Assembly (NCBI GenBank): GCA_963666485.2
Contig: CAXXUO010000001.1
Coordinates: 704,001-768,000 of the forward strand
DNA from: Syntrophorhabdaceae bacterium
GTDB taxonomy: Bacteria; Desulfobacterota; Syntrophorhabdia; Syntrophorhabdales; Syntrophorhabdaceae
Direction: 5' to 3'
DNA: 64,000 nucleotides
Below, one piece after another: positions 55,199 to 62,604 of this stretch. The translations under genes and the position numbers were made by a program. Below the pieces are notes generated by a model. The model had not been told where the DNA came from. It worked only from the letters and a program-made list of their open reading frames with translations, and did not search any database. The number at the start of each line of letters is the position of its first letter. The first letter of the stretch is position 1.

Positions 55199-55296
55199 AG
55201 TTCAAGGTTCAAAGTTCAAGGTTCAAAGAAAAAAAAGACCCCTCCGTTACTGCGGCCGTTTTTTGTCTTTTTCTTTGAACCTTGAACCTTGAACTT
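55199..55296. repeat. Inverted heptamer arrays (GGTTCAA)n / (TTGAACC)n
   Basis: Same unit at 56029-56211 and 62466-62599. Confidence 0.88.
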
Positions 55297-55332: not shown

Positions 55333-56022
55333 ATGGCAAAAAAAGAAACACTGGCAATGGTCCCCCTGTTCCGGGGGCTGTCTGAGAAACAGCTTGACCT
55401 GATGGGCGAGGCCTTCCCCAGGAAGCTGTACTCTCCGTCCCAGATCATCTTTTCGGAAGGCGAACCGGCTTCCGGGTTCTACATCCTGCTCTCCGGGAGG
55501 CTCAAGATATATAAGCTCTCTCTGGAAGGCAAAGAGCAGATCCTCCACATTATCGAGCCGGGCGAACCTTTTGCGGAGGTGGCGCTCTTCTCCGAAACGA
55601 AATTTCCCGCATATGCCGAGGCGATCGAAAAAAGCGAGGTCATGTTCCTGTCCCGCAACGCCTTTCGCCAACTGATCGGCAACGACCCATCCATAGCGAT
55701 GAACATGCTGGCGATCCTCTCGCACCGGCTCAAATATTTTACCCGCCTCATAGAAGACCTGTCCCTGAAAGAGGTCCCCCAGAGACTGGCCGCGTACCTC
55801 CTGTTCCTGGCGAAGCATGACGGCTCTTCGACATATTCGCAGGTGGCCCTTGGCATTTCGAAAGGTCAGCTCGCCAGCCTTCTTGGCACGATACCCGAGA
55901 CACTGTCGAGGATCATGGCAAAGATGGCAGGCCAGGGCCTGATAGACGTGCACGGCAGGAAAATAACGCTGCTCGATCCCACCACCCTTGAACTCCTGGC
56001 GCACGGGAAACGCACGCTCTAA
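55333..56022 (+). CDS. Crp/Fnr family regulator (HcpR/Dnr-like)
   Basis: cNMP-fold GKEQIL...FAEVALF; HTH LGTIPETLSR; no FNR Cys cluster. Confidence 0.9.
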   Translation: MAKKETLAMVPLFRGLSEKQLDLMGEAFPRKLYSPSQIIFSEGEPASGFYILLSGRLKIYKLSLEGKEQILHIIEPGEPFAEVALFSETKFPAYAEAIEKSEVMFLSRNAFRQLIGNDPSIAMNMLAILSHRLKYFTRLIEDLSLKEVPQRLAAYLLFLAKHDGSSTYSQVALGISKGQLASLLGTIPETLSRIMAKMAGQGLIDVHGRKITLLDPTTLELLAHGKRTL

Positions 56023-56028
56023 AAGACG

Positions 56029-56211
56029 GTTCAAGGTTCAAGGTTCAAGGTTCAGTGAAAAAAATAGAAACGGTTAAATTCAAAGAAAAGTGCCCGTTAA
56101 AATAGATTTTTCAAAGAACAATTTTTGTTAACTGAAGACGTTGTCTATAAAGATTCCCATCAATTTTTTTCTTTTGTTTTTCCCTTGAACTTTGAACCTT
56201 GAACCTTGAAC
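56029..56211. repeat. Inverted heptamer arrays (GGTTCAA)n / (TTGAACC)n around an AT-rich spacer
   Basis: Seen directly. Confidence 0.88.
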
Positions 56212-56225
56212 TATTTTTACCCCGG

Positions 56226-56253
56226 TTGACGCTTCTCAAACCGGTGTTATACT
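56226..56253 (+). promoter_or_regulatory. Sigma70 promoter TTGACG-16-TATACT (extended -10) overlapped by an FNR/HcpR-like palindrome
   Basis: TTGAC-GCTT-CTCAA at 56226-56239; TGtTATACT at 56245-56253. Confidence 0.65.
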
Positions 56254-56304
56254 TAAATTATATTTACGTGTACCGGCAGTATGCATATGAGGAGGTGATG
56301 ATCT

Positions 56305-56427
56305 ATGAAAAAAGTGGATGATGCAAGGATGCTGAAGAAGGAAGCCATGTTCTGGCGCGGCATCAAGGAAGCGCTTGCAAAGGACAGCACCAGGAAATGC
56401 CACAAATGAAAGTCCTGAAAGGGTTAG
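56305..56427 (+). CDS. Putative selenocysteine-containing RiPP precursor MKKVDDARMLKKEAMFWRGIKEALAKDSTRKCHKUKSUKG
   Basis: AGGAGGT RBS at 56290-56296; in-frame TGA at 56407 and 56416 in register with Cys32; TAG stop; SECIS-like hairpin right after; radical SAM/SPASM gene downstream. Confidence 0.8.
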
Positions 56428-56428
56428 A

Positions 56429-56446
56429 CGTTGCAGGTCTGCAACG
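56429..56446 (+). promoter_or_regulatory. Bacterial SECIS-like hairpin CGTTGCA-GGTC-TGCAACG
   Basis: Contains GTTGCAGGTCTGCA, matching the E. coli fdhF SECIS upper stem-loop as I recall it; starts 10 nt after the second TGA. Confidence 0.78.
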
Positions 56447-56455
56447 CGAATTGAA

Positions 56456-56502
56456 AACAGGCAGCCTGTATCGATCTTACAGATCGGGCTGCCTGTTCAT
56501 TT
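56456..56502 (+). terminator. Intergenic stem-loop (attenuator/mRNA stabiliser) between precursor and maturase
   Basis: AACAGGCAGCCTG...CGGGCTGCCTGTT followed by a weak T-tract (cattt). Confidence 0.65.
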
Positions 56503-56554
56503 GAGATCTTTCCCCCATGACCCGTACCGGGCGACACGCGAAAAGGATGCATTC

Positions 56555-57616
56555 ATGACCGAAGAATTGGAAAAGTTCGATTTTTTCATCCAGATGCACC
56601 TGACCGAGCGGTGCAACCTCTCTTGCGCCCACTGCTACCAGGAAGGCGCGGCGCCCCCGGAAATGTCGCTTACGGAAATTACCGGGGCGGTCAAGAACAT
56701 TGCGGATACGATAGACACGTGGTCCGGGATCTATGGCGTGCCATTCTCACCCAGTTTTAACGTGACCGGCGGTGAACCGCTTTTAAGGGCAGATCTCAAG
56801 GAGGTCCTTCACGTTATATCGGAACACGGCTTTGCGATCTTTCTTTTGACGAACGGGATCCTGATCGACAAAGATACATCGCGCATGCTTGCCTCGATTC
56901 CCGTCAAGGGGGTGCAGGTAAGCCTCGAAGGCCCCGAAGACATACACGACCTGATCCGCGGCAGGGGCAGTTTCGCGTCGGCCATCGACGGTGCGCGCCG
57001 CCTCCTTGATGCGGGCATCATTGTCACGTTCAATGTGACCCTCTCCCGGATCAATGCCGGGTATTTCCCGGACATGATAGCGCTCGCTGCTGCCACCGGC
57101 GTGCAGAGGCTCGGGTTTTCGCGGCTCGTCCCGTACGGGCGCGGATTGAACCTGGTCGACAAGATGCTGGGGCCGGAGGAGGTCCGGTCAATCTACGAGC
57201 AGGTCCTGTCCCGTCACATACCCGGTCTCGAGATCGTCACCGGGGACCCTCTCGCATCGCAGCTTAACGTCGGAAGCACAGTGACGGATCCCGGTGATTT
57301 TCCCTTAGGCGGATGCGCGGCCGGCATATCCGGCATCACGGTCCTTCCCGACGGGACATTGACGCCCTGCCGGAGGCTGGGCATACCAATCGGCAACCTC
57401 CTGAAGGATTCGCTTCGTGAGGTCTGGGCAAATTCGGATGTCCTCAATGCACTCCGCGACAAAACCGCATACAAGGGCAAGTGCTCAATGTGCAGCCGCT
57501 GGGCGGGATGCAGGGGATGCAGGGCGATCGCATACGCACATTCCCTGTGGCAGGGAAGAAGCGATTTCCTGGGGGAAGACCCGCAGTGTTTCATAGATGC
57601 GGGCGATGGGCAATAG
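56555..57616 (+). CDS. Radical SAM/SPASM domain protein, putative peptide maturase
   Basis: CNLSCAHC and TGGEP; SPASM GCAAG...TPC...CSMC...CRGCRA...DPQC. Confidence 0.9.
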   Translation: MTEELEKFDFFIQMHLTERCNLSCAHCYQEGAAPPEMSLTEITGAVKNIADTIDTWSGIYGVPFSPSFNVTGGEPLLRADLKEVLHVISEHGFAIFLLTNGILIDKDTSRMLASIPVKGVQVSLEGPEDIHDLIRGRGSFASAIDGARRLLDAGIIVTFNVTLSRINAGYFPDMIALAAATGVQRLGFSRLVPYGRGLNLVDKMLGPEEVRSIYEQVLSRHIPGLEIVTGDPLASQLNVGSTVTDPGDFPLGGCAAGISGITVLPDGTLTPCRRLGIPIGNLLKDSLREVWANSDVLNALRDKTAYKGKCSMCSRWAGCRGCRAIAYAHSLWQGRSDFLGEDPQCFIDAGDGQ

Positions 57617-57693
57617 GCGAGGGGCGAGGGGAAAATACTCAAAGAACTGGAAAAATAAGCCCCCCACTTATTTATAATATAACCCGAACCCTC

Positions 57694-57818
57694 CTATCGC
57701 CCATCGCCTATGACCGTACCGATTAATAAACTTTTTCCGATCGCCCCTTGCCTATCGGCCATCGCCGGACCGATTAATAAAGTTTTTCCTATCGCCTCTT
57801 GCCTATCGCCTATCGCCT
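57694..57818. repeat. 51-bp tandem duplication built on CTATCGC heptamers
   Basis: accgattaataaa(c/g)tttttcc... at 57718 and 57769. Confidence 0.75.
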
Positions 57819-62465: not shown

Positions 62466-62599
62466 GGTTCAAAGTTCAAGGTTCAAAGTTCAAGGCTAAA
62501 AACCCGTATTCTATAAAAACTCGGTACGTTAATACGGGTATCGCGCCGGTTAAGGGGGGTCTTGTCTTTACATTGAACTTTGAACCTTGAACCTTGAAC
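62466..62599. repeat. Inverted heptamer arrays (GGTTCAA)n / (TTGAACC)n
   Basis: Between convergent ttcA and DUF2752 genes. Confidence 0.88.
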
Positions 62600-62604
62600 A
62601 TTTT

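Follow-up and report, generated by a model that had tools for sequence, protein, structure and literature searches.

A stretch of 64,000 nucleotides from a Syntrophorhabdaceae bacterium (GenBank assembly GCA_963666485.2, contig CAXXUO010000001.1, positions 704,001 to 768,000 of the forward strand; hereafter the window, in whose own numbering positions are given) contains a small gene of 40 codons that, judging from its sequence and those of its relatives, very probably encodes a peptide with two selenocysteines (Sec, U), followed on the same strand by the gene of a radical S-adenosylmethionine (rSAM)/SPASM enzyme. The reading frame, its two in-frame TGA codons, a hairpin of the selenocysteine insertion sequence (SECIS) type behind the stop codon and the pairing of both genes are conserved across many loci, the genome has the full Sec machinery, and variants with Cys in place of Sec are absent among the relatives retrieved. 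Taken as a whole, these features are best explained by a two-gene module in which the Sec peptide would be modified by the rSAM/SPASM enzyme to a selenoether-bridged product, an explanation that we consider likely and in which the peptide frame, the SECIS hairpin and the peptide-enzyme pairing are the well supported parts.

A conserved peptide frame with two in-frame TGA codons

The peptide gene (56305-56427, + strand) is preceded by a Shine-Dalgarno sequence, AGGAGGT (56290-56296, + strand), located 8 nt 5′ of its ATG at 56305. The frame reads MKKVDDARMLKKEAMFWRGIKEALAKDSTRK, followed by TGC (56398), CAC, AAA, TGA (56407-56409), AAG, TCC, TGA (56416-56418), AAG, GGT and the stop codon TAG (56425-56427), which would give a leader of residues 1-31 and a core C32-H-K-U35-K-S-U38-K-G40. 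All these elements had been recognized in the original prediction, made from the sequence of the window, and their coordinates and + strand orientation are confirmed, as are the hairpin starting 1 nt after the stop codon and the rSAM/SPASM gene downstream on the same strand. The same prediction described the open reading frame (ORF) as missing from the ORF track, which holds for the full 40-codon frame; a table 11 reading does give a form of 34 aa (56305-56409) that stops at the first TGA.

When 101 related genomes were searched by DNA similarity, 30 of them gave a match to the region; one stray match was set aside and 29 loci were kept. The frame C-x-x-TGA-K-x-TGA-K-x-stop, together with the hairpin, is present in 27 of these 29 loci, the two exceptions being a locus with Asn for Lys and another one cut by the end of its contig. 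The related loci also carry a GGAGG(T) box before the start codon, at the same distance as in the window, and their products would be 35-42 residues long. A profile built from 26 relatives, among which residues E13, A14, W17, K21, C32, K34, U35, K36, U38 and K39 are invariant, was searched against a 401-genome sample of the phylum, and retrieved 2 chance matches and 22 real ones. All the real matches conserve both TGAs and the hairpin, including the first TGA (Sec35), a codon that was unconstrained in that search. Such a recurrence of the frame, both TGAs and the hairpin in 27/29 loci and 22/22 profile matches is more than chance would produce. Homologues ending at the first TGA position with TAA or TAG, with no conservation of the hairpin, would have spoken against the original prediction; instead, both TGAs and the hairpin are kept. 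A pattern scan of the genome contigs yielded, among the matches listed, 119 loci, which comprised 98 chance occurrences and 21 true members.

Conservation of the frame extends to 68 distinct loci, whose labels cover at least three phyla. Between the two TGAs, the codon stands for Ser in 45 of them (AGC in 30, AGT in 9 and TCC in 6), for Gly in 14, for Glu and Lys in 4 each, and for Ala in one. The codon following the second U-K pair corresponds to Ser in 39 loci (through six codons, from both Ser families), next to 17 loci with Gly, 7 with Thr, 3 with Ala and one each with Glu and Asn. What is preserved 3′ of the second TGA (Sec38) is a Lys followed by a small residue, and the Lys codons of the core appear as a mixture of AAA and AAG. 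As Ser is kept despite the switching between TCN and AGY codons, reading of these positions by the ribosome is hard to avoid as an explanation. The spacing between the TGAs is fixed, with 6 nt between them, and an in-frame stop codon directly follows the core in 59 of the 68 loci, while the other two frames through the core are unconserved across the same set. From this pattern we infer that both UGA codons are translated as Sec.

A SECIS-type hairpin behind the stop codon

In bacteria, a SECIS element is a stem-loop that follows the UGA at a short distance and has G and U among the bases of its apical loop. The hairpin of the window, CGTTGCA-GGTC-TGCAACG (56429-56446, + strand), begins 1 nt after TAG and has a 7-bp stem and a GGTC loop, located 17 nt after the second TGA. 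A perfect stem of 6-11 bp occurs in all 64 distinct loci examined, with the loops GGTC (31 loci), GTC (9), GTT (8), TGGAT (7), GGTCA (7), CAG (1) and GTG (1), so that GT or GGT is contained in all but one of them. In these loci, the loop lies 16-23 nt from the second TGA and 25-32 nt from the first one. RNAalifold, applied to the alignment of the peptide loci, retained four pairs, of which three carry double changes. When the six outer pairs of the stem were considered, two-sided changes were found in five, 85% of the cells could pair, and none of 500 shuffles reached the observed covariation. An indel made the inner pairs uncountable in this alignment, and a script comparison of the loci showed that A-T, T-A and C-G all occur at an inner stem position.

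The same genome offers a reference in its formate dehydrogenase alpha gene, FdhA (TIGR01591, 856 bits for a cut-off of 666 when read through one TGA), which has an in-frame TGA followed, 18-19 nt later, by a GTCGCC-GGTC-type hairpin. Both hairpins share the loop type, and the spacing in FdhA is that of the second TGA of the peptide. A crude scan of the whole genome for TGA codons followed by hairpins gave 82 matches, mostly noise, among which FdhA is the sole verified one. The covariation and the likeness to the FdhA hairpin thus support, at the level of sequence comparison, a SECIS-type element. The original description of this hairpin as SECIS-like gains from both lines of evidence, although the element corresponds to no Rfam family.

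A second, long and GC-rich hairpin with a T-rich tail (56458-56502, + strand) lies between the peptide and enzyme genes and resembles a transcriptional terminator. A simple terminator scan skipped it because its loop is longer than the scan rule allows. For the 126-nt stretch containing both hairpins, the folding energy is -42.8 kcal/mol (z = -3.7), a value that none of 200 shuffles equalled. In the main peptide subtype, a hairpin and T-run seem to recur at this position in most loci, as judged by eye and uncounted. As a side observation, the terminator-like stem shares the words GGCAGATATGGCA ... TGCCATATCTGCC across ten loci labelled as different phyla, from which the stem of the window itself deviates (CAGGCAGCC...). 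Such sequence conservation is unusual for a plain terminator, and the stem has no match in Rfam.

Regarding the factors that would decode both UGAs, the genome contains two selA and two selB genes, selD with an in-frame TGA of its own, and one tRNA-Sec. The machinery on which the original prediction depended is therefore complete. Both selA and both selB genes are above the cut-offs of their families, next to a single tRNA-Sec, and map to contigs C3 (20129-24445), C4 (168611-170485) and C1 (229833-231191); the second- and third-best tRNA-Sec matches are tRNA-Ser. Most genomes, among the rows listed from the 401-genome sample, show one selA match. The association with selA was also considered as a source of support and discarded as uninformative, since the gene is present in 10/10 of the carriers tested but also in 369 of the 401 sample genomes.

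The enzyme and its pairing with the peptide

The enzyme gene (56555-57616, + strand, ATG at 56555) encodes a protein of 353 aa with matches to the Pfam families Radical_SAM (PF04055, 1.3e-18) and SPASM (PF13186, 2.5e-9). It shows the motif C20-x3-C24-x2-C27 and seven cysteines in the SPASM region, and an alignment of 78 homologues has C20, C24, C27, C254, C272, C310, C313, C319, C322 and C345 as invariant cysteines.

The 22 genomes of the 401-genome sample in which a real peptide was found coincide exactly with the 22 whose rSAM relative reaches at least 53% identity, and the enzyme gene adjoins the peptide gene downstream. Five further enzymes, with 43-47% identity, have a second peptide subtype beside them, which brings the pairing to 27 of the 28 enzyme-bearing genomes; the exception is a match of 38% identity without peptide. 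On the metagenomic side, the search started from the enzyme, taking the best 80 of 588 relatives, 66 of which have at least 330 nt of upstream sequence. A C-x-x-U-x-x-U peptide lies upstream of the enzyme in 56 of these 66 loci, one has its peptide downstream (L278), and four have reduced or decayed forms (L245, L284, L276 and L229). A conserved peptide therefore does accompany the rSAM homologues, on which the original prediction had staked its validity. Two loci have a peculiar arrangement. In the metagenome locus L278, the gene preceding the enzyme ends at a TGA followed by a GGATCGCC-GGTG-type hairpin, and may be another selenoprotein gene that has been read short. In L202, which belongs to one of the genomes (G212:C186), an extra ORF of about 200 codons occupies a 679-nt gap between peptide and enzyme.

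The physical association of both products was modelled using the enzyme (78-row alignment) and the 34-residue table 11 product (57-row alignment), with our own alignments as input. The complex reached a score of 0.87 (median of 3 runs), compared with 0.01 for the best of 3 controls, which predicts binding for a peptide whose Sec core is outside the model. Agreement between the runs extends to at least 86% of the contacts, and the pLDDT of the partner is at least 70. The modelled contacts connect residues 9-28 of the peptide (E13, A14, F16, W17 and K21) with W56, Y60, R288, W291, A292 and R301 of the enzyme, which are invariant in the 78 homologues with the exception of A292. The predicted interface also includes enzyme residues 249-251 and 317, beside the SPASM cysteines C254 and C313/C319. 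The model, in which invariant residues of the leader sit on invariant residues of the enzyme, supports, as a prediction, a direct binding of the leader by the enzyme. The peptide is probably the substrate of the adjoining enzyme, an action that we infer from the pairing and the predicted docking.

Peptide subtypes and the absence of cysteine forms

Besides the main subtype, a second one has the form ..E-A-K-F-W..P-G-K-x-C-L-K/N-U-K-S/K-U-K-S-K and a TGA stop codon that overlaps the ATG of the enzyme (ATGA). Its hairpin is found inside the first codons of the enzyme (M-I-A-G-S/P-A-I...) and there is no terminator, so the same bases would act as SECIS and as enzyme coding sequence. This subtype was seen in L195-L199, L087 and L173 and in many metagenome loci (L269, L274, L275 and L285-L292 among them). 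A third subtype, ..R-E-A-R-F-F..C-L-A-U-K-S-U-K-G-K, occurs in metagenome loci.

Reduced forms are scarce. L245 and L284 encode peptides with a single Sec (C-Q-K-U-K-E-T-stop and C-R-K-U-K-S-K-stop), which keep the C-x-x-U motif and have lost the second Sec; their lone TGA lies 23 and 18 nt, respectively, from the hairpin loop (counted by hand). L276 shows TAA at the position of the second Sec, and L229 is devoid of leader.

Two signs had been regarded as decisive in the original prediction, namely Cys codons aligned to the TGA positions and a variable number of (C/U)xx units. The second one occurs rarely, in the single-Sec peptides just mentioned, and the first one in 0 cases. A profile search over 1.84 billion representative sequences gave 84 matches; the real ones stop at profile position 34, immediately ahead of the first TGA, and the set also holds one with TGA read as Trp, one frameshifted and two repeat proteins. 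A search of a 5.8-billion set with query words that included the Cys-substituted core gave 79 matches, called 'hypothetical protein' where named, all of which end in ...C-[H/R/L]-K, frameshifted reads aside. No variant with Cys for Sec was found among these 84 and 79 database relatives, where a Cys form could be hidden inside a cluster of the representatives. Moreover, the metagenome loci were matched with a regular expression open to both Cys and Sec at all three core positions, and every match was C, U, U. Cys homologues exist for most selenoprotein families; that none appear here points to selenium itself being important for the product, and the peptide family seems to need it.

These results also carry a warning for annotation, as the database relatives are 'hypothetical proteins' that end before the first TGA (bar one with TGA read as Trp and two frameshifted), which means that current pipelines miss the reactive part of the molecule.

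Comparison with known systems

The peptide, with TGA read as Cys, gave no match to any NCBIfam family (release 20.0) at E <= 0.01, nor to Pfam. The enzyme is below every NCBIfam cut-off among the best 25 of 76 matched families (bits/cut-off: AhbD 154/500, GeoRSP 150/400, ACGX 146/400, MftC 130/265, SbtM 112.6/350 and PqqE 81/381), and its best sequence match in the PDB is SkfB (3.1e-24), followed by PqqE, anSME and CteB. Membership of SbtA/SbtM (TIGR04081/TIGR04082) was rejected, given that the peptide has no match and the enzyme score covers model positions 199-515 of 516 at that level, far from the cut-off. The same applies to SCIFF, ACGX, GeoRSP, mycofactocin, PQQ and AhbD/NirJ, for which no curated cut-off was reached and the peptide again had no match. 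The initial impression that the peptide looks like neither SbtA nor SCIFF is borne out, as no NCBIfam model for SbtA, SbtM, SCIFF or sactipeptides was reached.

As with SbtA/SbtM, the system consists of a peptide with UGA-encoded Sec, presumed in this case, beside an rSAM/SPASM enzyme, and occurs in anaerobic, formerly 'delta-proteobacterial' lineages. SbtA (TIGR04081) is tabled as 'Selenobacteriocin', with a motif SGUG, and is the only peptide of its kind in the part of the selenoprotein survey available (PMC13188914). In contrast, the core described here is C-x-x-U-K-x-U-K at the extreme C-terminus, the enzyme does not have the N-terminal part of about 200 residues of SbtM, and a single hairpin after the stop codon follows both UGAs.

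The enzyme also resembles the SCIFF maturase Tte1186, PapB, CteB and SkfB in its CX3CX2C motif and SPASM/twitch cysteines, and these enzymes likewise act on short peptides with Cys-rich cores. However, the substrates of ranthipeptide and sactipeptide maturases carry Cys, and not natural Sec. Several thioether-forming rSAM/SPASM maturases bind the leader through an N-terminal RRE domain, whereas the 353-residue enzyme does not have such a domain and the model places the leader on the rSAM/SPASM core. On the other hand, the systems for mycofactocin (MftA/MftC) and PQQ (PqqA/PqqE) are similar in having a short peptide with a reactive C-terminal end, an adjoining rSAM/SPASM enzyme and an intracellular product with no exporter. 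They differ in that no conserved PqqD- or MftB-like chaperone or peptidase appears here, and in that the reactive residues would be Cys and Sec rather than Tyr, Glu or Val.

Regarding the arrangement of the Sec residues, UxxU motifs are tabled for Prx-like proteins (UxxC/UxxU), the metal-binding protein NF041115 and the FmdB family alone, and predicted bacterial selenoproteins include cases of two Sec two positions apart and of Sec three residues from the C-terminus (PMC13188914, in the part available). The UxxU and CxxU selenoproteins (including 'UXX-star') are, unlike the peptide, folded domains or members of other families, none of which matched it in NCBIfam, and for those in the accessible tables of PMC13188914 there is no mention of a 40-residue peptide that would be paired with an rSAM enzyme. 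No description of this peptide family was found in the literature, where the families of Haft & Tolstoy 2025 (mSystems) are represented by their entries in a review table. The best reading is that the pair constitutes a second, undescribed family of Sec-containing peptides modified by a radical SAM enzyme. SbtA/SbtM being the sole natural family of this type in the lists examined, as far as these are accessible, a second one would widen the known uses of Sec. Compared with SbtA/SbtM, it would be a widespread family with a different core, a smaller enzyme and no Cys-only relatives.

A model for the module and its alternatives

The most likely pathway would start with the reading of both UGAs of 56305-56427 as Sec, producing a 40-residue peptide with a conserved, helical-looking leader (K-E-A-x-F-W ... 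K) and a core C-x-x-U-K-x-U-K-x. A single SECIS hairpin after the stop codon would recruit SelB for both UGAs, at the usual distance from the second one and 9 nt more from the first. The terminator-like hairpin between the genes would result in more peptide than enzyme transcript. The leader would then dock directly on the core of the enzyme, with no RRE or PqqD domain involved, and a 5′-deoxyadenosyl radical would take a hydrogen atom from a neighbouring residue in the Lys-rich core. Finally, a C-Se (possibly C-S) bond would form with the selenolate held on an auxiliary Fe-S cluster, giving rise to a selenoether-bridged peptide. The bond type is a guess by analogy, to which we would give slightly less than even chances. 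The selenoether chemistry is plausible because PapB and Tte1186 make such bridges on Sec-substituted peptides, with Se bound to the cluster Fe (PMC10177961, in the part available).

Given the lack of any conserved gene for a protease, exporter or immunity function, the modified peptide probably has an intracellular role. It could be proposed that the pair makes an obligately Se-containing peptide cofactor or redox mediator of the cell, as a selenium counterpart of mycofactocin or PQQ. We regard this idea, in which such a product would occur in anaerobes carrying the labels of at least three phyla, as rather unlikely. It is left open by the absence of any Cys form, which suggests that the active product retains selenium itself, by the absence of exporter and of protease, and by the single post-stop SECIS for two UGAs 9 nt apart, a hairpin that one subtype has inside the first codons of the next gene. 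In any case, a peptide of 40 residues and an enzyme of 353 are small enough for direct testing, and the system could reveal radical SAM chemistry on a natural selenol as well as one SECIS serving two UGAs.

Several observations weigh against the proposed module. Four metagenome loci carry a reduced or decayed peptide, and in another 5 of the 66 enzyme loci no peptide was found within 900 nt. Neither a protease nor an exporter nor an immunity gene is conserved beside the pair, unlike in many clusters for RiPPs (peptides made on the ribosome and modified after translation). Compared with the spacing seen in FdhA, the first TGA lies 9 nt further away from its hairpin, and no Rfam match was obtained in the region of the window (E <= 10) or in 10 related loci (E <= 0.1). 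That TGA and AAR never vary in the table of 68 loci is partly built in, as one search pattern and the filter demanded them, although the DNA, profile and protein searches, free of this constraint, gave the same picture. Lastly, the score mark used for the complex, reached by 116/157 solved complexes and by 2/215 mismatched pairs, is a calibration that is only rough with our own alignments, and the core is absent from the modelled peptide of 34 residues.

Among other explanations, the peptide could be a finished small selenoprotein, with a redox-active or metal- or Se-binding C-x-x-U(-x-x-U) tail that would provide the enzyme with electrons, Se or metal, or act as a chaperone, and with the substrate of the enzyme elsewhere. 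C-x-x-U is indeed a common redox motif in the accessible selenoprotein table (PMC13188914). Both single-Sec variants retain precisely this motif and lose the second Sec, no protease or exporter is conserved, and the strict co-occurrence and predicted binding would suit a partner of the enzyme as well as a substrate. The layout, however, is that of a precursor and its maturase, with a conserved leader, a variable linker, an invariant core and an adjoining rSAM/SPASM gene that overlaps the peptide gene in one subtype, and the nearest relatives of the enzyme include the peptide and protein modifiers SkfB, PqqE, anSME, CteB, MftC and SbtM. To our knowledge, no rSAM/SPASM enzyme uses a dedicated peptide as redox partner, which also counts against a finished selenoprotein, and this explanation appears quite improbable.

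Alternatively, translation might simply stop at the first TGA, leaving a 34-residue product ending in ...C-H-K and a downstream RNA element that controls the enzyme gene. Table 11 and all public gene calls end there, the SECIS has no Rfam match and a terminator-like hairpin lies 3′. Yet the conservation past both TGAs is at the level of amino acids, with switches between Ser codon families, and comes together with the fixed 6-nt spacing and the direct in-frame stop codon in 59/68 loci; the loop type and spacing are those of the FdhA hairpin of the same genome, and one subtype has its hairpin inside the first enzyme codons with no terminator, all of which makes an early stop very unlikely. Even less credit can be given to a regulatory leader peptide in which the selenium supply would set the passage through the UGAs, and hence termination at the downstream hairpin and expression of the enzyme, in a form of attenuation. 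Two rare recoding events directly before a terminator-like hairpin would fit this mechanism. Against it, no pairing that could act as an anti-terminator was seen, and a terminator is missing from the subtype with the ATGA overlap; moreover, conservation includes the leader residues, for which binding to the enzyme is predicted, and a mere sensor would have no need for the invariance of Cys32 and the Lys residues. A Sec peptide modified by its adjoining enzyme remains the explanation that accounts best for the whole.

Genomic context and distribution

Upstream of the peptide gene, a promoter-like site (TTGACG-16-TATACT with a TG extension, 56226-56253, + strand) agrees with the sigma-70-like consensus at 10/12 positions. 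The promoter of its own attributed to the ORF in the original prediction has thus a candidate, as a match to consensus only. The next gene upstream encodes a CRP/FNR-type regulator (55333-56022, + strand) that lies outside the conserved two-gene core; it is found on the same strand in 7/7 loci of the same genus and, like the HD-GYP-type gene and the AI-2E transporter located downstream, is conserved within the genus only. Elsewhere, the neighbours of the pair vary. In seven loci (L061-L064, L068, L069 and L088), a B12-binding rSAM gene is found directly upstream on the same strand, with 4 to about 280 nt separating it from the peptide gene. Four of these seven could be traced to one family (f34), while L061 and L069 have partial ORFs with the Radical_SAM domain only. 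This upstream enzyme may represent an added tailoring activity.

The closest relatives of the window are labelled Syntrophorhabdus or Syntrophorhabdaceae. Among the titled matches listed, true members appear as Nitrospirae, Nitrospirota or Nitrospiraceae (at least 5), delta proteobacterium (at least 2), and Deferribacteres, Geobacter sp., Syntrophobacterales and Thermodesulfobacteriota (at least one each), bearing in mind that phylum labels in records of metagenome-assembled genomes may be loose.

The intergenic regions of the window contain palindromes based on a GGTTCAA heptad (56022-56218, 55199-55295 and 62466-62600), with 12 matches in the window for 0 expected; at 56022-56218, they form 42-nt arms that are 83% complementary and 113 nt apart. 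They look like a family of REP- or MITE-like repeats, and one of them lies between the CRP/FNR gene and the promoter-like site of the peptide. A unit of about 30 nt (..ACCGATTAATAAA.TTTTTCC.ATCGCC..) occurs twice in direct orientation at 57690-57800, in the gap that separates the enzyme gene from the HD-domain gene.

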